From the IMG/VR virus record IMGVR_UViG_3300045988_087398: a DNA stretch of 62,946 nucleotides. One strand, written 5' to 3'. The notes beneath the pieces were generated by a model. That model worked only from the letters and a program-made list of their open reading frames with translations, did not search any database and had not been told where the DNA came from. Shown one piece after another: positions 5,797 through 57,845 of this stretch. Origin of the DNA: a virus. Position numbers and translations under genes: made by a program. Within the stretch, counting starts at the first letter, position 1, and each line of letters begins with the position of its first letter.

Positions 5797-6087
5797 GTGA
5801 AAGAGAATAAGTTTCAGGCAGGATTAAAAAAGAAACTTAAAACGATGTTTCCCGGATGTATAGTAACCAAACTCGATTCGAGTGATATTCAAGGCATTCC
5901 AGATTTACTTGTCTTATATAAAGATAAGTGGGCTGCCTTAGAAGTCAAGAAAGAGGCGAAAGCTTCTCATAGACCGAATCAAGATTACTATGTTGAGAAA
6001 ATGAATGAGATGTCATTTTCCAGATTTATATTTCCAGAAAATGAGGAGGACGTATTAAATGAACTTCGTGAAACATTCAAATCTTGA
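5797..6087 (+). CDS. VRR-NUC domain nuclease
   Basis: GTG start after AAGGAGGGG. The GIPDLLVL...ALEVKKE segment is a PD-(D/E)xK core typical of VRR-NUC. Confidence 0.65.
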   Translation: MKENKFQAGLKKKLKTMFPGCIVTKLDSSDIQGIPDLLVLYKDKWAALEVKKEAKASHRPNQDYYVEKMNEMSFSRFIFPENEEDVLNELRETFKS

Positions 6088-6613
6088 GGGGCTTCATGCA
6101 CCATTCAGTGCTAGTCAGTCGGCATGGCTTAGATATGACACTGAAAAAGCACTAACCGTATATGATAATATGCGGGCAAAAGAAAGAGGGACAAAGCTTC
6201 ATGATTGGGCAAAGAGAACTATCGACTTAGGAATCAAACAGCCCAGATCAAATAAAACCTTGTATGCATATGTCAATGATGCTATTGGTTTTAAAATGAG
6301 TACCGAAGTGGTGTTATATTACTCACCATATTTCTTTGGTACAGCTGATGCTATATCATTTAGAAATAATAAATTAAGAATACATGATCTTAAGACTGGA
6401 AAATCTGGTCACATGGAGCAGCTTGAAGTATACGCTGCTCTTTTTTGTTTGGAATACAAAATCAAACCAGGAGATATACAGATGGAGTTACGCTTATATA
6501 AGGACAATGAAGTAATTGTTCATGAGCCAACTGCTGAAGATATTTTACCAATCATGGACAAGATCACGTCTCTTAACAAAGCATTAGAAAACTTTGACGA
6601 CAGGGAGGTGTAG
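6059..6613 (+). CDS. PD-(D/E)XK family nuclease (RecB/Cas4-like fold)
   Basis: GTADAISF...LRIHDLKTGK...QLEVYA reads as a D...D/ExK...Q..Y motif series. Confidence 0.55.
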   Translation: MNFVKHSNLEGLHAPFSASQSAWLRYDTEKALTVYDNMRAKERGTKLHDWAKRTIDLGIKQPRSNKTLYAYVNDAIGFKMSTEVVLYYSPYFFGTADAISFRNNKLRIHDLKTGKSGHMEQLEVYAALFCLEYKIKPGDIQMELRLYKDNEVIVHEPTAEDILPIMDKITSLNKALENFDDREV

Positions 6614-6616
6614 ATA

Positions 6617-9592
6617 TTGAATCCTATTGCAGAAGAAATTGAATCATATCAGGGATGTGGCTCGATGACAACGAACGAATTCCTTGAGCATTATGGAATG
6701 CCTAGAAGATCAGGTAGATATCCATGGGGTTCTGGTGAGGATCCATATCAGCATGAGAGAGACTTCCTTAGTCGAGTTGAAGAATTAAAAGCGACTGGTT
6801 GGACAGAAACTCCGGAGAATATTAAAGAGACATTCGGATTGACGACAACACAGTATCGTACTGAGAAAGCTCTGGCTAAAGATGAACGAAGAATGTATGA
6901 CGTAGCAAGGGCAAAGTCACTCAGAGATGATGGTCTTGGAGCAACAGAGATTGGACGTAAGATGGGTATCAATGAATCGACAGTCAGATCGTTACTTAAT
7001 CCACATTCTGAACAGCGTATGGAGCAGGCGAGAAACACTGCAAAATATTTGAAAGAACAAGTGGATAAGAAGGAAATGGTTGAGGTTGGTACAGGTGTAG
7101 AGCGAGAGCTGAATATTTCAAAGGAGAAATTAGATCAAGCTCTCTATCTGTTGCAGAGAGATGGGTATAACGTTTACAAAGGTGGAATACCACAGGCAAC
7201 CAACCCAGGGCAACAAACAAATCAGCGAGTATTATGCAAGCCTGGAATTGAGCATAAAGAAATATATGATTTCAATAGAGTACAATCCTTGAAAGATTAC
7301 ATTTCGAGAGATGGCGGTGATACTTTTGAAAAGAAGTTCCATTATCCAGAGAGCATGGATTCAAGGCGATTGATGATCCGCTATAAAGAGGATGGCGGAA
7401 TTGAAAAGGATGGAGTAGTAGAGCTTCGTCCTGGTGTTGCTGACTTATCGCTTGGCGAATCTCGTTATTCTCAGGTTCGTATTATGGTTGACGGTAAGAA
7501 ATACATAAAAGGTATGGCTGTTTATGGAGATCCAAAAGATTTTCCCGATGGTATTGATGCCATCTTCAATACAAACAAATCTAAGTCAGTAGCAAAGATG
7601 GATGTGTTGAAAGACATCAAGAATGATCCAGACAATCCTTTTGGTTCACTCATCAAAGATGCTGATCAAGGAGGTCAGTATTGGTATGATGATCCAAAGA
7701 CTGGTAAAAAGAAACTTGGATTGATCAATAAAAGATCCGATGAGGGTGATTGGACTGAATGGAAAGACACGTTACCATCTCAGTTCTTGGCAAAGCAGTC
7801 ATTGAGAATGGCGGGCAAACAGCTGGATTTAGCCAAGGCAGACAGAAGAGATGAGTTTGAAGAGATTAAATCGATCACGAACCCTGTGATTAAAAAACAT
7901 TTCTTAGAGAAATTTGCTGATAGTTGTGATTCAGCATCAGTTCATTTGAAAGCGGCAGCGTTACCGGGGCAGAAATACCATGTAATACTCCCTATCAATT
8001 CTTTAAAGGAGAACGAAGTGTATGCTCCTGGATATACGCCAGGAACTAAGTTAGCATTGATTCGTTATCCGCATGGTGGAACATTTGAAATTCCAATACT
8101 TACTGTTACTGATAAAAATCCAGAAGGTAGAAGAATAATCGGAACCGAATCTATTGACGCAGTCGGTATTAATCACACGGTTGCTGAGCGTTTATCAGGA
8201 GCTGATTTTGATGGTGATACTGTTATGTGTATTCCAACACACGACAAAGCAGGAAGGGTTAAGATCGCCTCAACGCCTCCATTAAAAGGTCTTGAGGGAT
8301 TCGATCCAAAAATGTCATACCCAGAACGTCCCGGTATGAAATATATGAAAGACCCAAAGACTGGTAAAGACAATACTCAGAATGAAATGGGGAGAATTTC
8401 AAACCTTATCAGTGATATGACCTTAGCAGGAGCACCACCAGAAGAAATGGCTAGAGCAGTAAGACATTCTATGGTAGTTATTGATGCTGGAAAACATAAG
8501 CTGGACTACAAGCAAAGTGAGATTGATAACAACATTAAAGCATTGAGAAAAGAGTATCAGGTTAAGACGGATAAGGATGGAAACATTACTGGCTATGGTG
8601 GCGCCGCTACTATCATTTCAAGAAGTAAGGGCGAATCTACAATAAACAAACGCCAAGGTACGCCCAAGATTAATCTTAAGGGTAAAGAATGGTATGACCC
8701 AAGCAGACCTGAAGGTGCACTTATCTATAAAGATGCAGATAACCTATACTACCCAGATCGTAAGCAAGAGAAAGGTATCGTGGAGTTACGTACCGTGGAT
8801 GGTAAAAAAGTAACCTACTCCTATGCCGATAAGGATGCGGTAGATAGGTATGCCCCAGTAGAGAGGAGAGACCCTGCTACCGGAAAAGTCACATTCACTA
8901 ATAAAGATGGAAGCATAGAGTATCGAACCAAGGTTCATACACAGAAGAGTACCAATATGGCTGATACTGATGATGCATACACTCTAGTATCAAAGGCTAG
9001 ACACCCTATGGAACTTCTATATGCCGATTATGCCAATGATATGAAAGCATTAGCGAATCAGGCACGTGTTGAACTAGCCAATACAAGTAAGGTGGCATAT
9101 AACCGAAATGCCAACACAATGTATAAAGCAGAGGTTAAGTCGTTGGATGAGAAACTTAATAATGCATTATTAAATGCTCCTAGAGAGCGTGCCGCACAAC
9201 GAATGGCTAATGCTGAAGTACAAAAGAAACAATTGGACAATCCTGATTGGAAGTCTGCTGATGTTAAGAAAGCGAGTCAGCAAGCATTAACAAAGTTTCG
9301 ACAAGAAGTTGGCTCTGTCTCGAGAAGAGCTCGAAACATACAGATTACAGACAATGAATGGAAAGCTATTCAAGCTGGAGCAATCAGTGAAAGTAAATTA
9401 AAGAAGATTCTTAATAATGCAGACATTGATGAATTGAGACAACGTGCCACACCAAGACAGACAAAAGCTATGACCGAATCTCAAATCAATCGTGCAAAAG
9501 CAATGTCTTCTTCGAACTTCACATTAAAACAGATCGCAGATGCTTTAGGCGTCTCAACATCAACAGTTTCAAAGTATTTGAAAGGAGCGTGA
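6617..9592 (+). CDS. Candidate YonO/RdRP-like two-barrel RNA polymerase with N- and C-terminal HTH-like segments
   Basis: TTG start after GGGAGGTG. LALIRYPHGG...AVGINHTVAERLSGADFDGDTVMCIP parallels beta-prime NRAPTLHR...[23 protein letters not shown]. HTH-like segments are GATEIGRKMGINESTVRSLL and LKQIADALGVSTSTVSKYL. Confidence 0.5.
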   Translation: MNPIAEEIESYQGCGSMTTNEFLEHYGMPRRSGRYPWGSGEDPYQHERDFLSRVEELKATGWTETPENIKETFGLTTTQYRTEKALAKDERRMYDVARAKSLRDDGLGATEIGRKMGINESTVRSLLNPHSEQRMEQARNTAKYLKEQVDKKEMVEVGTGVERELNISKEKLDQALYLLQRDGYNVYKGGIPQATNPGQQTNQRVLCKPGIEHKEIYDFNRVQSLKDYISRDGGDTFEKKFHYPESMDSRRLMIRYKEDGGIEKDGVVELRPGVADLSLGESRYSQVRIMVDGKKYIKGMAVYGDPKDFPDGIDAIFNTNKSKSVAKMDVLKDIKNDPDNPFGSLIKDADQGGQYWYDDPKTGKKKLGLINKRSDEGDWTEWKDTLPSQFLAKQSLRMAGKQLDLAKADRRDEFEEIKSITNPVIKKHFLEKFADSCDSASVHLKAAALPGQKYHVILPINSLKENEVYAPGYTPGTKLALIRYPHGGTFEIPILTVTDKNPEGRRIIGTESIDAVGINHTVAERLSGADFDGDTVMCIPTHDKAGRVKIASTPPLKGLEGFDPKMSYPERPGMKYMKDPKTGKDNTQNEMGRISNLISDMTLAGAPPEEMARAVRHSMVVIDAGKHKLDYKQSEIDNNIKALRKEYQVKTDKDGNITGYGGAATIISRSKGESTINKRQGTPKINLKGKEWYDPSRPEGALIYKDADNLYYPDRKQEKGIVELRTVDGKKVTYSYADKDAVDRYAPVERRDPATGKVTFTNKDGSIEYRTKVHTQKSTNMADTDDAYTLVSKARHPMELLYADYANDMKALANQARVELANTSKVAYNRNANTMYKAEVKSLDEKLNNALLNAPRERAAQRMANAEVQKKQLDNPDWKSADVKKASQQALTKFRQEVGSVSRRARNIQITDNEWKAIQAGAISESKLKKILNNADIDELRQRATPRQTKAMTESQINRAKAMSSSNFTLKQIADALGVSTSTVSKYLKGA

Positions 9593-45090: not shown

Positions 45091-45885
45091 ATGAGTAAAG
45101 AATCATTTGCGAGATTTGTGAAAAGCACAAAAAGAGGTCTCGTAAAACACAGTCCGGAAATCTTAACCGGATTAGGAATCGCAGGAATGATATCATCTGT
45201 CGTTCTTGCGGCAAAAGCAACGCCCAAGGCGCTTCAGTTGATTGAAGAAGCGAAGGATAAGGCAGACACAGACAAGCTTACAGTACCAGAAACAATCAAG
45301 GCAGCATGGAAGCCATATATTCCAGTCGTACTTACATGCAGTGCATCTGTAGCTTGTATTATTGGTGCAAATACAGTAAATGCACGACGCAATGCTGCTC
45401 TTGCTACGGCATATGAACTCTCAAGAAATGCTCTGACTGAGTATAAGGAGCGTGTGGTAGAGGAGATTGGCAAGGAAAAAGAGCAGAAGATACAGGAAAA
45501 GGTTGCTCAGAAAAAGATCAACGAAACACCAAACGCATCTAATGTAATAATTGCAGGTGCAAACAAGGTGTGGTTTCTTGAGCCTGTATCTGGACGATAT
45601 TTCCAGGCAAATGTAGAAGACGTAAGACGAGTAATCAATGATTTGAATTATCGCCTTACTGGTGGAATGGAAGAGTATGTATCGCTCAGTGAATTCTATG
45701 ATGAAATCGTGGCTATTGGTGGAGATCTTCCTCACACATGCACCAGCGACGATCTTGGATGGAACCTCAATCGAGATGGGCAAATTGAAATCGATATGCC
45801 AGCAGGCAAAATGTCAAATGGCGAACCATGTCTCGTATTGGACTATCATGTAGCACCGCGGTACGATTATTCAAAATTATCGTAA
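45091..45885 (+). CDS. Two-TM-hairpin protein family, paralog B (264 aa)
   Basis: VKHSPEILTGLGIAGMISSVVLAAKATPKALQLIEEAKD...ATAYELSRNALTEYKERV. Confidence 0.65.
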   Translation: MSKESFARFVKSTKRGLVKHSPEILTGLGIAGMISSVVLAAKATPKALQLIEEAKDKADTDKLTVPETIKAAWKPYIPVVLTCSASVACIIGANTVNARRNAALATAYELSRNALTEYKERVVEEIGKEKEQKIQEKVAQKKINETPNASNVIIAGANKVWFLEPVSGRYFQANVEDVRRVINDLNYRLTGGMEEYVSLSEFYDEIVAIGGDLPHTCTSDDLGWNLNRDGQIEIDMPAGKMSNGEPCLVLDYHVAPRYDYSKLS

Positions 45886-47483: not shown

Positions 47484-48416
47484 ATGAAGAATGATTTGAA
47501 AAATAAGATGACTCGGTCATTATGTAAGGCAAAGTTTAAGGTTAAAAAGCATAGCCCAGAGATCTTGGTTGTTGCAGGCGTGATTGGTACGGTGACAAGT
47601 GCTGTGATGGCATGTCGCGCTACAACAAAGCTGAGTAAGATTCTCGATGAGGCGAAAGAGACAGAGAAGACAATCTCTGAAGGAATGGAAAGTGGATATA
47701 TCGCAGATCAGGAATACACAGAGGAAGACGGCAAGAAGGATCTCAGAATCACAAAGGTTCAGACTGGATTAAAGGTTGTAAAGCTGTATGCACCAGCTGT
47801 TATCCTTGGCGGATTATCAATCACAGCCATGCTGACATCTAACAATATTCTCAGAAAGAGAAACGTATCACTTGCAGCGGCATATGCAGCAGTAGATAAG
47901 AGTTTCAAGGAATATCGTGGCAGAGTAAAGGAACGTTTCGGTGAAGAGCTGGACAAGGAGCTTCGTTACAACATCAAGGCGAAGGAAATCGAAGAAGTAG
48001 TTAAGGACGAGAAGACCGGTAAAGAAAAGGTTCAGAAAAAAATCGTGAACGTTTCTGATTTTGATGATTGCAGCGAGTACGCAAAGTTCTATGATTGCGG
48101 TTGCACTGGATGGACAAAAGACCCAGAGCTGAATTTGATGTTTCTTAGAAAACAGCAGGACTTCTTGAATGATCGGTTAAAGGCTGAGGGTTATCTGTTC
48201 TTGAATGATGTGTATGATGCACTTGGTATTCAGAAGACAAAGATTGGTCAGATTGCAGGTTGGGTTTATGATGAAAAGAATCCAGTCGGAGATAACTATA
48301 TCGATTTCGGAATTTATGACACTCATCGTGAGGCAAATAGAAGATTTGTAAATGGTCTTGAGAGAACAATTCTTCTTGATTTCAATTGTGATGGTGACAT
48401 TCTGGATATGATGTGA
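47484..48416 (+). CDS. Two-TM-hairpin protein family, paralog C (310 aa; its C-terminal domain is shared with 42358..42693)
   Basis: KKHSPEILVVAGVIGTVTSAVMACRATTKLSKILDEAKE...AAAYAAVDKSFKEYRGRV. Confidence 0.65.
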   Translation: MKNDLKNKMTRSLCKAKFKVKKHSPEILVVAGVIGTVTSAVMACRATTKLSKILDEAKETEKTISEGMESGYIADQEYTEEDGKKDLRITKVQTGLKVVKLYAPAVILGGLSITAMLTSNNILRKRNVSLAAAYAAVDKSFKEYRGRVKERFGEELDKELRYNIKAKEIEEVVKDEKTGKEKVQKKIVNVSDFDDCSEYAKFYDCGCTGWTKDPELNLMFLRKQQDFLNDRLKAEGYLFLNDVYDALGIQKTKIGQIAGWVYDEKNPVGDNYIDFGIYDTHREANRRFVNGLERTILLDFNCDGDILDMM

Positions 48417-49898: not shown

Positions 49899-52800
49899 AT
49901 GGCTGATTTTTATAGAATAGCTTATCAGAATAAGCAAGGCATGATAGAAATATTTCCTAAATTCATTATTGGGAATAGCTCCGATCTTATGATACGAGGT
50001 GGCGATTTTTATGCTGTATGGTTGGAAGACAAAGGTCTGTGGTCCACCGATGAGCAAGACGTCATTCGAATGATCGACAGAGATCTGGATAAGTATGTCA
50101 CAGATAATAGTCCAAGGTTCGATACGAACACAAAGATTAAATATATGTGGGATGCAGAATCTGGATCGATTGACCGATGGCATAAGTATTGTCAGAAACA
50201 ACAAAGGGACTCATTTCACATGTTGGATGAAAAACTTATATTTTCCAATAGTGAGACAAACAAGAAAGATTATGCCAGCAAACGATTGAATTATCCATTG
50301 GAACCTGGTAAATGTCCAGCTTATGAGAAGATTATATCAACGATATATTCGGAGGAAGAAAGACATAAGATTGAATGGGCGATCGGGTCTATTGTTACCG
50401 GCGATTCCAAGACAATACAGAAGTTTCTTGTATTGTATGGTGCTGCTGGTACAGGTAAATCAACCATCTTGAACATTATCCAACAGTTATTTGAGGGTTA
50501 CTATTCGGTATTTGATGCGAAGGCATTGGGGTCGAGTAGTAACTCTTTTGCGTTAGAGGCATTTAAGTCGAACCCGCTGATTGCAATTCAGCATGATGGA
50601 GATCTGTCTAAGATCGAAGATAATACGAGATTAAATAGTCTTGTATCTCATGAGATGATGACTGTGAATGAGAAATTCAAGTCAACCTATGCCAGCCAGT
50701 TTAAGTGTTTTCTATTCATGGGTACAAACAAGCCAGTACGAATTACAGATGCAAAGTCTGGTCTTATACGAAGATTGATTGATGTATCACCTTCCGGAAA
50801 GAAAGTTAGTCCTAAAGAATACAACACCTTAATGGAGCAGGTTAAGTTTGAGCTTGGTGCTATTGCTTGTCATTGCAGAGACGTATATTTGGAAGATCCT
50901 GGATATTACGATACATATCTTCCAATGTCAATGATGAGTGCATCAAATGATTTCTACAACTTTATTATCGATTCATTTCATGTATTCAAAAAAGAAGACG
51001 GAACAACGTTAAAGGCAGCATGGGAAATGTATAAAACATATTGTGATGAGGCGAAGGTTCCGTATCCATTTTCTCAGAGAAGTTTCAAAGAAGAACTTAA
51101 AAACTATTTTTGGGATTTTGACGAGGAGATTGATGAGGATGGATCTAAGATAAGAAATATTTATCATGGATTTAGAACCGAGAAATTTGAAACTTTTAGT
51201 CACAGAAAAAGAGAGGAAAAAAATGTGACTAACTCAGAATCTTGGCTGCAATTCATGAATGCAGCAGAAACAACAAAGAGCTTTGATATGGAATGTGAAT
51301 CATGCCCAGCTCAATATGCAACGGACAAAGAAACCCCAAGTAAATCTTGGAACCAAGTCACAACCACACTCAAAGACATCGATCCATCGAAACTTCATTA
51401 TGTCAAGGTTCCAGAGAATCACATAGTTATTGACTTTGATTTGAAGGGCGATGATGGCAAAAAATCGTTTGAAAAGAATTTGGAGGCTGCTGCGAAGTGG
51501 CCACCTACGTATGCGGAGCTTAGTAAAAGTGAGGCAGGGATCCATCTTCATTATATTTATAATGGGGATGTATCAAAATTAAGTCGTATATATGACGAAA
51601 ACATTGAAATAAAGGTTTTTACAGGTAAGAGTTCTCTTAGACGAAAACTTACCAAGTGCAATAATTTATCTGTTGCGACGATAAGCTCCGGATTACCAAT
51701 GAAAGGAGAAAAGATGATAGATAAAAATATTGTACAATCTGAGAAAGGTCTCAGAACAACAATTAAAAAATGTCTTAATAAAGAAGTCCACGCTGGTACA
51801 AAATCCAATGTGGACTTTATTTATAAGATTTTGGACGATGCTTACAATAACGGTCTTCATTATGACGTATCAGATATGAAGAATGACGTATTAGCATTTG
51901 CTGCTAATAGTACCAATCAGGCACCATATTGTATCAAGCTGGCGAGTAAGATGAAGTTCAAGTCGGAAGAGATATCAGACGGCAAAGCGGATGAAAATGC
52001 ACCATTGATATTTTATGATATCGAGGTATTTCCGAACTTGTTCTTGGTCAATTGGAAAATCCAGGGAGAAGGAAACCCCGTAGTTCGAATGATCAATCCA
52101 AGTCCAAAAGACATTGAGGATTTGATCAAATACAATCTTGTAGGATTCAACTGCCGAAGATATGATAACCATCTTATTTACGCAAGACTTATGGGATATA
52201 CGAATGAGCAGTTATATAACTTATCTCAGAAAATTATATCTGGAGATCGAAATGCATTCTTTGGAGAAGCTTACAATTTGTCTTATACAGATGTGTATGA
52301 CTTTGCATCTGCTGGAAACAAAAAAAGTTTGAAGAAGCTTGAGATTGAGATGAATAACGTCGCAAACGATCCGAAGTCAAAAATGGATGACAGTCTTAGA
52401 CAAATGTTGAAGAACATAAAGCATCAGGAGCTTGGTTTACCTTGGGATCAACCAGTACCTGAAGATTTATGGGTAAAAGTTGCAGAGTATTGTGATAATG
52501 ATGTCATTTCGACCGAGGCAGCATTCTTATATTTGTCTGCGGATTGGACAGCTAGACAGATTCTGGCGGATTTAGCCGGGATGACAGTAAATGACACGAC
52601 AAACACGCTTACAACCAGAATTATATTTGGTAAAGACAAAAAGCCACAGAGTCAGTTCAATTACAGAAATTTGGCAGAACCAGTCACAGAAATGACATTG
52701 GAGACACAGGAATTCTTGAAGGAAGCTTGTCCGGAAATGATGGAGGAACCGCATGGAGAAGCAAAAAGCATGTTGCCTTATTTTCCAGGGTATAAATACG

Positions 52801-54089
52801 AAGCCGGTAAATCGACATATCGGGGAGAGGTTGTTGGTGAAGGCGGATATGTATATTCTGAACCGGGTATGTACGGAAACGTAGCATTACTTGATATTGC
52901 ATCTATGCATCCTCATAGTGCTATCGCAGAGGTATTGTTTGGTGTTAAATTTACACAGGCATTTAGAGATATTGTTGAGGGTCGTGTAAGTATCAAACAT
53001 CAGGCTTGGGATGAGGTAAATCACATGCTTGATGGTAAACTTACGCCTTATATTCAGAAAGTCATTGATGGTGAAATGACAGCTAAGCAGCTTGCAAATG
53101 CATTGAAGACTGCAATCAACTCTGTATACGGATTAACTTCAGCAAGCTTCAGCAATGCGTTTAGAGATCCGCGTAATAAGGACAATATTGTAGCTAAACG
53201 TGGTGCTTTATTCATGATTGACTTGAAGAATGAGGTGCAGGCAAGAGGATTTACAGTTGCTCATATCAAGACGGACTCAATCAAGATTCCAGACGCAACG
53301 CCAGAAATCATACAGTTCGTTATGGATTTTGGTAAAAGATATGGTTATACATTTGAGCATGAGGCTACGTATGACAGAATGTGCCTCGTAAATGATGCAG
53401 TTTATATCGCAAAGTACAAAGACGCAGAATCATGTCAGGCTATGTATGGTTATGCGCCAGGAGATAATGCAGATCATGGTGGAGATTGGACTGCAACAGG
53501 TAAGCAGTTCGCAGTACCATATTTATTCAAGACATTATTTAGTCACGAAGACATTGAATTTAACGATATGTGTGAGACATTTGCTGTATCCAAAGGAGAT
53601 TTATATTTGGATATGAATGAGAATTTACCTGACGTGGCTAAGTATGAGATTGAATTGGAGAAGCTTGAAGAGCAGTACAAGAAAGGTAAGATCTCGGATG
53701 TTATATTTGAATCCGAATCAGCTGGTCTTCCGGATAAGATTGCAGAGGGTCATGAAATGCAGTTTGTAGGGAGAGTTGGTCAGTTCTGTCCGATTATGTC
53801 TGGAAACAATGGCGGAATTTTATACCGTGTCTGCGATGGTAAGAATTATGCTGCACCAGGATCGAGTGGATATCGATGGTTGGAATCTGAGACAGTGAAG
53901 AGATTAGGTTTGACTGATAACATTGATCGCTCATTCTATGATGCATTAGTAAACGATGCAGTAGATAGTATATCACAGTATGGAGATTTTGAGTGGTTTG
54001 TATCCGACGATCCATACATTCCAGAAAACAACGATGGACATATGGTCATACCTTATGGACCACCAAACGATCCAATACCATTTAAGTAA
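49899..54089 (+). CDS. Replicase fusion: SF3 (D5/P4-type) helicase + archaeo-eukaryotic prim-pol + family B DNA polymerase with 3'-5' exonuclease
   Basis: LYGAAGTGKST Walker A at aa ~181 and SGLIRRLI. HIVIDFDLKGDDG and AGIHLHY (AEP) at aa ~510-550. FYDIEVF (ExoI), YCDNDV (ExoIII), LLDIASMHPHS (motif A), KTAINSVYG (motif B), HIKTDSIKI (motif C). Confidence 0.8.
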   Translation: MADFYRIAYQNKQGMIEIFPKFIIGNSSDLMIRGGDFYAVWLEDKGLWSTDEQDVIRMIDRDLDKYVTDNSPRFDTNTKIKYMWDAESGSIDRWHKYCQKQQRDSFHMLDEKLIFSNSETNKKDYASKRLNYPLEPGKCPAYEKIISTIYSEEERHKIEWAIGSIVTGDSKTIQKFLVLYGAAGTGKSTILNIIQQLFEGYYSVFDAKALGSSSNSFALEAFKSNPLIAIQHDGDLSKIEDNTRLNSLVSHEMMTVNEKFKSTYASQFKCFLFMGTNKPVRITDAKSGLIRRLIDVSPSGKKVSPKEYNTLMEQVKFELGAIACHCRDVYLEDPGYYDTYLPMSMMSASNDFYNFIIDSFHVFKKEDGTTLKAAWEMYKTYCDEAKVPYPFSQRSFKEELKNYFWDFDEEIDEDGSKIRNIYHGFRTEKFETFSHRKREEKNVTNSESWLQFMNAAETTKSFDMECESCPAQYATDKETPSKSWNQVTTTLKDIDPSKLHYVKVPENHIVIDFDLKGDDGKKSFEKNLEAAAKWPPTYAELSKSEAGIHLHYIYNGDVSKLSRIYDENIEIKVFTGKSSLRRKLTKCNNLSVATISSGLPMKGEKMIDKNIVQSEKGLRTTIKKCLNKEVHAGTKSNVDFIYKILDDAYNNGLHYDVSDMKNDVLAFAANSTNQAPYCIKLASKMKFKSEEISDGKADENAPLIFYDIEVFPNLFLVNWKIQGEGNPVVRMINPSPKDIEDLIKYNLVGFNCRRYDNHLIYARLMGYTNEQLYNLSQKIISGDRNAFFGEAYNLSYTDVYDFASAGNKKSLKKLEIEMNNVANDPKSKMDDSLRQMLKNIKHQELGLPWDQPVPEDLWVKVAEYCDNDVISTEAAFLYLSADWTARQILADLAGMTVNDTTNTLTTRIIFGKDKKPQSQFNYRNLAEPVTEMTLETQEFLKEACPEMMEEPHGEAKSMLPYFPGYKYEAGKSTYRGEVVGEGGYVYSEPGMYGNVALLDIASMHPHSAIAEVLFGVKFTQAFRDIVEGRVSIKHQAWDEVNHMLDGKLTPYIQKVIDGEMTAKQLANALKTAINSVYGLTSASFSNAFRDPRNKDNIVAKRGALFMIDLKNEVQARGFTVAHIKTDSIKIPDATPEIIQFVMDFGKRYGYTFEHEATYDRMCLVNDAVYIAKYKDAESCQAMYGYAPGDNADHGGDWTATGKQFAVPYLFKTLFSHEDIEFNDMCETFAVSKGDLYLDMNENLPDVAKYEIELEKLEEQYKKGKISDVIFESESAGLPDKIAEGHEMQFVGRVGQFCPIMSGNNGGILYRVCDGKNYAAPGSSGYRWLESETVKRLGLTDNIDRSFYDALVNDAVDSISQYGDFEWFVSDDPYIPENNDGHMVIPYGPPNDPIPFK

Positions 54090-54119: not shown

Positions 54120-54611
54120 ATGGAATTAACATTTGCACCAAGAGGTATCTTGCAGATTGATGACGCAGATATCACTTACAGAAATTTTAGAGGAGAGGGA
54201 TCGCTTTATAATAGAGAAGGCGATCGGAATTTTTCATTGATTATTCCATCAACAGAAATTGCTGATGCATTAGCAAGTAACGTCAATGAATATGGCGTTG
54301 GCTGGAACGTGAGAATTAAGCCACCAAGAGAAGAGGGTGATAACCCATTTATTACACTCAAGGTGAACGTGAAGTTCAATGAGTATGGACCTCATATTTT
54401 CTTACACACTGGTAATCACGTAACAGAGCTTGACGAGGAAAGTGTATCGTGTTTGGATATGATCGATATCGAGCGCGTAGATCTTGACATTTCTCCATCG
54501 GATAGAGTTGTTAACGGCAAGCCTTATCGAACTGCATATGTAAGAACAATGCATGTTGTTCAGAAGATTGACCGTTTTGAAGGTAGATATGGCAACAATA
54601 ACGAAGAGTAA
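54120..54611 (+). CDS. Possible ssDNA-binding (OB-fold) protein
   Basis: Lies after the polymerase. The pattern ITYRNFRGE...REGDRNFSLIIP...GWNVRIK recalls phage SSB-like proteins, but support is weak. Confidence 0.3.
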   Translation: MELTFAPRGILQIDDADITYRNFRGEGSLYNREGDRNFSLIIPSTEIADALASNVNEYGVGWNVRIKPPREEGDNPFITLKVNVKFNEYGPHIFLHTGNHVTELDEESVSCLDMIDIERVDLDISPSDRVVNGKPYRTAYVRTMHVVQKIDRFEGRYGNNNEE

Positions 54612-55915: not shown

Positions 55916-56608
55916 ATGAAAAAAGAATTGATCTCTGGTGGGTGTATACTATGTGACGGTCTTACATCGGAAGAACTGATACAATCATTGGATAGACACA
56001 TATTTCCACGAAAAAAAATTTATGATTTAAGCAAGCTTGAAGTCCATTTTGGCCGGGAATTATTTAATAGATTATGTAATGATGACATAATTAATTATGA
56101 CTCTATTAATCATTCATTTACAGTTACGGTATGTGAAATTCCTTGTCGTTTATCATACGAATGTCCATCTTATGGATATTGTGTATATTTGAAGCATGAT
56201 CACGAAGACCAGATGGACTCGACGATAGGATTGTTTCAGGATGATATTAAAAGACAGCTTAATGCAGCATTTGGAAGATCGTCTGTACCTATTGATATAT
56301 CCGGAAGAATTAAAAAAGTTATCTTCAACCCACCTGCAACTATTATATTCTGGAAAGATAGTAGTAAAACAGTAGTGAAATGCGACGGCGAAGCTTTTGA
56401 TCCTGAGAAGGGAATGGCTATGGCAATCAGCCGCAAGGTGTTAGGTGATTCCTATGGATATTATAATATATTTGAAAAGTGGTGCAAGAAGTACAAGGAG
56501 CCGGGTAAAAGATCAGGCAAATATCCATGGGGAACAACTCCACAGGAAGTAGCGGCTAAGTATATGCCACTGCCTAATGCAGAATCAGGTGATTCAGATG
56601 CCGACTAA
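55916..56608 (+). CDS. Hypothetical protein (C-terminal VIFNPPATIIFWKDSSKTVVKC...EKGMAMAI domain; KRSGKYPWG motif)
   Basis: GGAGGG RBS, 230 aa. Confidence 0.55.
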   Translation: MKKELISGGCILCDGLTSEELIQSLDRHIFPRKKIYDLSKLEVHFGRELFNRLCNDDIINYDSINHSFTVTVCEIPCRLSYECPSYGYCVYLKHDHEDQMDSTIGLFQDDIKRQLNAAFGRSSVPIDISGRIKKVIFNPPATIIFWKDSSKTVVKCDGEAFDPEKGMAMAISRKVLGDSYGYYNIFEKWCKKYKEPGKRSGKYPWGTTPQEVAAKYMPLPNAESGDSDAD

Positions 56609-57845
56609 GCCGTTTTTATATGACTACCAGATGGATGCTGTGAATCACATGTTCAATGGTTGTATTCTCAATGGTGGTGTTGGATCGGGAAAAAGTAGAA
56701 CCGGATTATATTACTATTTCAAGGAACAAGGTGGTAGTATAAATCCAGACTACAAACCGATGAAAAAGCCAAAGGATTTATATATTATCACAACTGCCAT
56801 GAAACGGGATACTTTGGAATGGGAAGGTGAGCTGGCAAATTACCTACTATCCACAGACCCAAAGAAAAACCTCTTAAATGGTAGCGTAAAAATTACCATA
56901 GATTCATGGAATAATATAAAGAAGTATGTAGATGTAAAAAATGCATTCTTCATATTTGATGAACAGAGAGTGGTTGGATCCGGAGCTTGGGTTAAGGCAT
57001 TTCTGAAAATAACAAAGTCAAATAATTGGGTTTTGTTGTCGGCAACTGCCGGAGACACCTGGTCTGATTATATTCCGGTATTCATAGCAAATGGTTTTTA
57101 TAAGAACAGATCTGAGTTCATCCAACAACATGTGATATATTCTCGATTTACAAAATACCCGCAGATTGACAGATATATCAATACTGGTCGATTAATTCGT
57201 TTAAGAAAGAAAATACTGATTGATATGGACTTCAAGCGTCAGACAATCGCTCACCATAATGATATTTATGTAACATATGATGTCACTAAGTATAAATCAG
57301 TTGTGAAAAATAGATGGGATCCATACAAAAATGAACCTATCCAACAGGCATCGGGTCTCTGTTATATTTTAAGAAGAGTCGTTAACGAAGACGAATCCAG
57401 AATAGTAGCTCTATTGGAGATTCTTGAGAAAACTCCTAGAGCTATTATTTTTTACAATTTTGATTATGAGCGAGAGATGCTATTACATGTGTTTAGCAAC
57501 CACGATGGTAATAGTAAGGACTTTGAAGTGGCCGAATGGTCTGGTCATGCTCACCAACCTATACCAAAAACAAAGCGATGGGTATATCTGGTTCAGTATA
57601 CGGCTGGATGTGAAGGTTGGAATAGTATCAAGACAGACACGATTATATTCTATTCACAGAATTACAGTTATAAGGTTGTGACACAGGCTGCTGGACGAAT
57701 CGATCGTCTGAATACGCCATTCAAAGATTTATATTATTATCATCTGAAAAGTAGAAGCGGGATTGATCTCGCCATAAGTAAAGCATTGAAGGAGAAGAAA
57801 AAATTCAATGAAACAAAATGGTGCGGTAATTCATTCGCGAAATAA
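56598..57845 (+). CDS. SF2 (DEAD/DEAH-like) helicase
   Basis: GGVGSGKSRT (motif I), FIFDEQR (II), LLSATAGD (III), QAAGRIDR (VI). Confidence 0.75.
   Translation: MPTKPFLYDYQMDAVNHMFNGCILNGGVGSGKSRTGLYYYFKEQGGSINPDYKPMKKPKDLYIITTAMKRDTLEWEGELANYLLSTDPKKNLLNGSVKITIDSWNNIKKYVDVKNAFFIFDEQRVVGSGAWVKAFLKITKSNNWVLLSATAGDTWSDYIPVFIANGFYKNRSEFIQQHVIYSRFTKYPQIDRYINTGRLIRLRKKILIDMDFKRQTIAHHNDIYVTYDVTKYKSVVKNRWDPYKNEPIQQASGLCYILRRVVNEDESRIVALLEILEKTPRAIIFYNFDYEREMLLHVFSNHDGNSKDFEVAEWSGHAHQPIPKTKRWVYLVQYTAGCEGWNSIKTDTIIFYSQNYSYKVVTQAAGRIDRLNTPFKDLYYYHLKSRSGIDLAISKALKEKKKFNETKWCGNSFAK

Follow-up and report, generated by a model that had tools for sequence, protein, structure and literature searches.

The question raised by the viral record IMGVR_UViG_3300045988_087398, of which the whole 62,946-nt stretch is referred to below as the window, is what kind of enzyme is encoded by the long open reading frame (ORF) at positions 49899..54089 of its plus strand. 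An earlier note on this DNA had read the product as a superfamily 3 (SF3) helicase, an archaeo-eukaryotic primase (AEP) and an exonuclease-proficient family-B DNA polymerase (PolB) joined in one chain in a helicase-first order. The ORF list and the translation show one ORF of 1396 codons without an internal stop, ending with the stop codon at 54087-54089, as the note had held; residue n of the 1396-aa product starts at nucleotide 49899 + 3(n-1), and all features of the gene given below lie on the plus strand. The gene very probably codes for a phage replicative enzyme, namely a HelPrimPolB (GP55-type 'four-in-one') replicase that unites a helicase, an AEP, an accessory domain and a proofreading PolB. 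The helicase does come first (residues 1-437), followed by the AEP (residues 461-600), a set of helices (residues 601-689) and the PolB (residues 690-1396).

This architecture was described for gp55 of Lactococcus phage 1706 (Kazlauskas et al. 2016, PMC4889955), and the corresponding PolB group, which falls in an EpsilonN-like clade and has a divergent motif C and a KxY motif, was named HelPrimPolB after its domain order (Kazlauskas et al. 2020, PMC7544198). Purified GP55 acts as a DNA polymerase, as a 3'-5' exonuclease and as a UTP/dTTP-dependent helicase and is referred to as a 'four-in-one replicase' (Zhang et al., Nucleic Acids Research 2025, PMC12205980). Its AEP makes RNA primers only, with 5'-CCAAC-3' as a strong site and GTP as the preferred start, while DNA is synthesised by the PolB; priming requires the helical domain (aHD), and single-stranded M13 DNA is fully replicated by GP55 de novo (PMC12205980). 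The protein is a dimer in solution, as determined by size-exclusion chromatography with multi-angle light scattering (SEC-MALS), its primase domain is able to work together in trans with its polymerase domain, and more than 1000 homologues are present in nr (PMC12205980).

The window protein matches orf55 of phage 1706 in one tblastn segment covering residues 3-1363 (97%) with 38% identity (E = 0), and a MAFFT alignment of the two proteins gave 41% identity over 1270 columns. They are collinear, with the same order of SF3 helicase, AEP, helical accessory domain and PolB and the same divergent motif C, and the GP55 deletion boundaries 439 and 689 correspond to residues 437 and 689 of the window protein. 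In GP55 the helicase activity is lost upon the K189A substitution, D509A makes the enzyme primase-dead, mutants in D712/E714 and D949 are exonuclease-dead and polymerase-dead, respectively, and mutation of Y655 and F667 abolishes priming (PMC12205980). Every residue mutated by Zhang et al. (2025) is kept in the window protein, where K187, D514, D707, E709, D999, Y655 and F667 are the identical counterparts of K189, D509, D712, E714, D949, Y655 and F667. The window protein exceeds GP55 by 79 residues, with an insertion of about 20 residues at positions 821-840, and identity varies by domain, being 32% in the helicase, 62% in the AEP, 45% in the helical domain and 40-49% in the PolB. PHROG 4210 matches the replicase end to end (residues 3-1381, E = 0). 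The assignment is based on sequence, fold and the conservation of all residues mutated in GP55, and the activities, nucleotide preference and oligomeric state of the window enzyme are extrapolated from that protein.

The primase is N-terminal in 94% of primase-helicase fusions (Kazlauskas et al. 2016, PMC4889955), in agreement with the assertion that a primase is normally placed before a helicase. The architecture had also been called unusual, which holds among primase-helicases generally; however, it is not new. The window protein is a plain member of the HelPrimPolB/GP55 family, whose architecture and activities have already been published; the description dates from 2016, the name from 2020 and the biochemical tests from 2025.

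Conservation was counted over 94 aligned family members, down to about 40% identity. Every motif quoted in the earlier note was found where it had been placed; the replicase motif set is far beyond chance, and its key residues are invariant in 94/94 aligned members. The domain searches proposed as a check were run, and both profiles and folds bear out the three domain calls.

The D5-type SF3 helicase module (residues 1-437, 49899..51209), recognised by Pfam, PDB profile and Foldseek searches, comprises a beta-rich collar-like N-terminal part (about residues 1-120), a P-loop ATPase core (about 150-300) and a helical/winged C-terminal part (about 300-437). The Walker A motif LYGAAGTGKST (residues 179-189, nt 50433-50465) contains G181, G184, G186, K187 and T189, invariant in all 94 sequences, K187 being the counterpart of K189 in GP55. 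Also invariant are D233 of Walker B, N277 of sensor-1, and R291/R292 at the arginine-finger position. Pfam family DUF5906, a D5-type SF3 ATPase, was found above its cut-off at residues 179-292 (E = 1.4e-13), and residues 119-434 match PHROG primase-helicase families via the C-terminal helicase halves of those families. A profile built from 30 relatives identified the SaPI5 primase-helicase (PDB 7OLA, E = 8.8e-9) as well as the helicase region of NrS-1. The top Foldseek matches of an AlphaFold2 model of residues 1-445, with a predicted local distance difference test score (pLDDT) of 74, were SaPI5 Rep, the PrimPol of African swine fever virus (ASFV), vaccinia D5, monkeypox virus (MPXV) E5, PriRep1 and the NrS-1 C-terminal region (CTR). 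For SaPI5, ASFV, vaccinia D5 and MPXV E5 the E values ranged from 2.5e-8 to 4e-6 over 357-531 aligned columns, an extent which shows that the part ahead of the ATPase core belongs to the same helicase module. The SF3 helicase call is thereby supported by DUF5906, by the SaPI5 profile match and by the fold. The module is followed by a poorly conserved, indel-rich linker (residues 438-460, 51210..51278), which shows the lowest conservation (0.33) in the first half of the protein and 28% gaps, with pLDDT below 50 at the end of the helicase model and at the start of the AEP model.

The PrimPol-type AEP catalytic domain (residues 461-600, 51279..51698) is recognised by its fold, its motifs and PHROG 3022 (primase), which matches residues 477-573. 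An AlphaFold2 model of residues 455-700 has a pLDDT of 81 overall and about 90 over the AEP part. Its ten best Foldseek matches are all pRN1 ORF904 or NrS-1 PrimPol structures (E from 1e-5 to 3.5e-4, probability 0.99-1.00), the next match having E >0.1. Motif I, VIDFDLKGDDG (residues 510-520, nt 51426-51458), provides D512-x-D514; motif II, AGIHLHY (residues 546-552, nt 51534-51554), provides G547-x-H549-L-H551; and the motif III region (nt 51600-51650) contains E570-x-K572 followed by L580-R-R582. Residues D512, D514, G547, H549, H551, E570, K572 and R581/R582 are invariant among the 94 sequences, and D512/D514, H549/H551 and E570 would represent motif I, motif II and the acidic residue of motif III, respectively. 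The AEP call of the earlier note therefore gains support from the PrimPol fold matches, from the invariant DxD, His and Glu residues, and from a sub-threshold match to Pfam Prim-Pol in 25/30 family members (best E = 0.012). A conserved zinc finger was considered for a CxxC at residues 465-468 and rejected, as these cysteines vary among relatives.

Several actinophage members (5 of the 10 in alignment A2) carry an insertion of 17-18 residues just before the AEP core, with a consensus of about DxERxxxxGExxKPKPSQ (A2 columns 40-57; loci L084, L086-L089 and L091). It is found in Gordonia, Arthrobacter, Rhodococcus, Microbacterium and some Streptomyces phages and is absent from the gut and lactococcal members.

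Downstream of the AEP, the AlphaFold2 model contains a four-helix accessory domain equivalent to the aHD of GP55 (residues 601-689, 51699..51965), with helices at about 615-626, 637-650, 658-669 and 675-683. Y655 is kept in 92/94 and F667 in 93/94 of the aligned members.

The remainder of the chain is a PolB with an N-terminal 3'-5' exonuclease part (residues 690-900, 51966..52598) and a polymerase part (residues 901-1396, 52599..54086) containing motifs A, B and C and then a thumb/C-terminal region. Residues 681-1176 match PHROG 1252 DNA polymerase (E = 4.5e-44), and phmmer and profile searches related the PolB part to E. coli Pol II, archaeal PolB and Pol alpha. The exonuclease motifs are complete: Exo I, FYDIEVF (residues 705-711, nt 52011-52031), with D707/E709; Exo II (nt 52140-52178), with N751 and Y755-D756; and Exo III, YCDNDV (residues 864-869, nt 52488-52505), with Y864 and D868. 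All of these residues are invariant in 94/94 members, except N751, which is kept in 93/94. The 3'-5' proofreading exonuclease thus appears active, in line with the suggestion of an exonuclease-proficient PolB. In the polymerase part, motif A is DIASMHPHS (residues 999-1007, nt 52893-52919) with D999, and motif B is KTAINSVYG (residues 1070-1078, nt 53106-53132) with K1070, N1074, Y1077 and G1078. Motif C reads H-I-K-T-D1126-S (nt 53262-53279; KTDS, residues 1124-1127, at nt 53268-53279), with an invariant lysine, K1124, where the usual DTDS has its first Asp. D999, the four named residues of motif B and D1126 are invariant in all aligned members, as are the H, K, T, D and S of motif C, while I1123 is found in 91/94.

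Between Exo II and Exo III, residues 821-840 (52359-52418) form a stretch of about 20 residues, VANDPKSKMDDSLRQMLKNI, that is absent in about 60% of the 94 relatives. It appears to be an insertion within the exonuclease part that is specific to a clade.

Several observations weigh against assigning the gene to an active GP55-type replicase. The window protein scores 12.5 bits against Pfam Prim-Pol (PF09250), below the cut-off of 22.8, and the PDB profile search returned no primase for the AEP region, only chance-level lactococcin immunity proteins; therefore it is the fold, the motifs and the homology to GP55 that carry the AEP call. The missing first Asp of motif C goes in some PolB groups with reduced activity; this point is offset by GP55, an efficient polymerase, which aligns to the same invariant motif C column. 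Finally, since the helicase module is only about 32% identical to that of GP55, the nucleotide preference and the oligomeric state may differ from those of GP55.

In one alternative, the AEP-like domain is a decayed non-catalytic spacer, so that the protein is a helicase-polymerase only and priming is left to a host primase or to some other protein of the phage. The sub-threshold Pfam score, the lack of a conserved zinc finger and the presence of Glu rather than Asp as the third acidic residue would all fit such a domain. However, the putative catalytic residues D512, D514, H549, H551, E570, K572 and R581/R582 are invariant in 94 sequences from phages of two bacterial phyla, the fold matches active PrimPols, and the accessory-domain residues required for priming are kept. 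Moreover, GP55 uses its homologous domain to make RNA primers and loses this ability upon the D509A substitution, which corresponds to D514 here. A non-catalytic spacer is accordingly highly improbable.

The genes around the replicase bear on a second alternative. A gene for a single-stranded DNA (ssDNA)-binding/single-strand annealing protein of 163 aa, a likely partner, lies directly 3' of the replicase gene on the same strand (54120..54611; PF24083 Phage_ssDNA_bind, E = 7e-38; PHROG 4787, E = 2e-45). Further downstream on this strand, a second helicase of 422 aa (56577..57845; PHROG 62 DNA helicase, E = 3e-57) corresponds in relative position to orf67 of phage 1706 and to the gene annotated 'helicase' in Faecalibacterium phage FP_oengus; in both phages annotated helicases lie downstream of the replicase. 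The replicase gene is thus located in a replication module arranged as in 1706 and FP_oengus, and a scan of 20 neighbouring ORFs revealed no further primase or polymerase. In this alternative the phage relies on host replication, and the protein serves in repair, translesion synthesis or conflict instead of replicating the genome; the lack of the first motif C Asp is shared with some specialised PolBs (Kazlauskas et al. 2020, PMC7544198). Such a role is scarcely credible for a protein with all exonuclease motifs intact whose gene stands beside an ssDNA-binding protein and a helicase, with no second polymerase or primase among the ORFs scanned. It is likewise opposed by GP55, which is efficient and proofreading and copies whole M13 ssDNA de novo, and by the occurrence of the same gene in the replication module of lytic actinophages and phage 1706.

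Elsewhere in the window, two paralogous DUF6353/PHROG 2152 genes (45091-45885 and 47484-48416) are located upstream of the replicase. A 184-aa exonuclease (6059-6613; PHROG 3953, E = 1.7e-71) is encoded directly upstream of a 991-aa ORF (6617-9592).

The integrity of the fusion was assessed by comparison with related loci. The 4191-nt ORF aligned gap-free with three independent IMG/VR contigs, the nucleotide identities being 98.4%, 96.2% and 96.2%, with one of these contigs fetched twice (L003 = L094). Each of the 80 related IMG/VR loci fetched contained a single open frame of 1240 aa or more. A tblastn search of 50,697 phage records identified a full-length replicase in 252 of them, including isolated or published phage genomes, as a single segment in all except Streptomyces phage Scarif. 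Their hosts are Arthrobacter, Gordonia, Streptomyces, Lactococcus, Rhodococcus, Microbacterium and Curtobacterium, and the records also include FP_oengus and gut and oral metagenomic siphoviruses. No near-identical record to the 13 kb around the replicase gene was found among the phage records by megablast. The search of related phages for split versions proposed in the earlier note yielded no split form: with the PolB part alone as the query, the same 252 fused genes were recovered, followed only by about 8 marginal matches, such as Burkholderia phage KL1 at 22%, so that no unfused close relative of the PolB domain was found in the 50,697 phage records. Because of the gap-free contigs, the open frames in all 80 loci and the 252 phage records, an assembly chimera or a hidden frameshift is excluded for practical purposes. 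Thus, the idea that an error of assembly or sequencing (a chimera or a missed indel) produced the long ORF and that the helicase-primase and polymerase genes are really separate is already effectively refuted and retains a negligible probability.

Phage Scarif, matched by tblastn in two pieces, was considered as a possible split version and rejected, because its fused gene is complete (query 3-1364) and the small separate upstream ORF resembles only residues 141-330. In this locus (L083, 1483-4159), the 148-aa ORF upstream of the complete replicase gene is annotated as 'DNA polymerase', although it is weakly similar to the helicase core (25% identity over query 141-330), and is followed by three unannotated genes.

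Closer relatives than GP55 and more distant structural kin place the replicase in a wider context. The 'helicase/polymerase' of FP_oengus (AUV56521) is a full-length orthologue with 57-62% identity, and the 'DNA primase/polymerase' genes of Gordonia, Arthrobacter and Streptomyces phages encode full-length orthologues with 45-54% identity; all have the same neighbours downstream, namely genes for an ssDNA-binding protein and for a second helicase. The D5-type primase-helicases, namely vaccinia D5, MPXV E5, ASFV C962R, SaPI5 Rep and NrS-1 polymerase, have the same helicase fold, including the pre-ATPase part, and likewise carry an AEP and an SF3 helicase in one chain. Unlike the window protein, they have the AEP N-terminal to the helicase and lack a PolB, and they are hexamers, whereas GP55 is a solution dimer. 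The pRN1 ORF904 and NrS-1 PrimPol, the best structural matches of residues 455-700, have similar DxD, His and acidic motifs, but their sequence identity is only 10-13%. The helical accessory domain of GP55 is not homologous to the helix-bundle domain of pRN1/NrS-1 (Zhang et al. 2025, PMC12205980).

The proposed mode of action of the replicase follows that of GP55. The helicase module would unwind the duplex, using UTP/dTTP if it resembles GP55 in this respect; the AEP together with the helical domain would synthesise short RNA primers on the exposed strand. These primers would be extended with proofreading by the PolB of the same or a partner subunit, with helicase-assisted strand displacement. 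As to the oligomeric state, the arginine finger of SF3 helicases completes the ATP site of the neighbouring subunit, and R291/R292 occupy this position without variation; over about 360-530 columns, residues 1-437 can be aligned with the helicase regions of the D5, E5, SaPI5 and ASFV enzymes, which are hexameric. On DNA in the presence of nucleotide, the replicase could conceivably form a D5-like hexameric ring with six primase and six polymerase modules instead of a GP55-like dimer, although such an assembly is considered rather unlikely.

The result is a confident annotation of a gut-phage gene as a replicative helicase-primase-polymerase, which adds little new to what has been published for the family. 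The fusion is uniform and widespread, as a relative of the replicase is encoded by more than 556 IMG/VR stretches in addition to the 252 phage records, whose hosts belong to the Firmicutes and Actinobacteria. That the search of the phage records found no unfused close PolB relative agrees with the functional coupling of the domains reported for GP55 (Zhang et al. 2025, PMC12205980).

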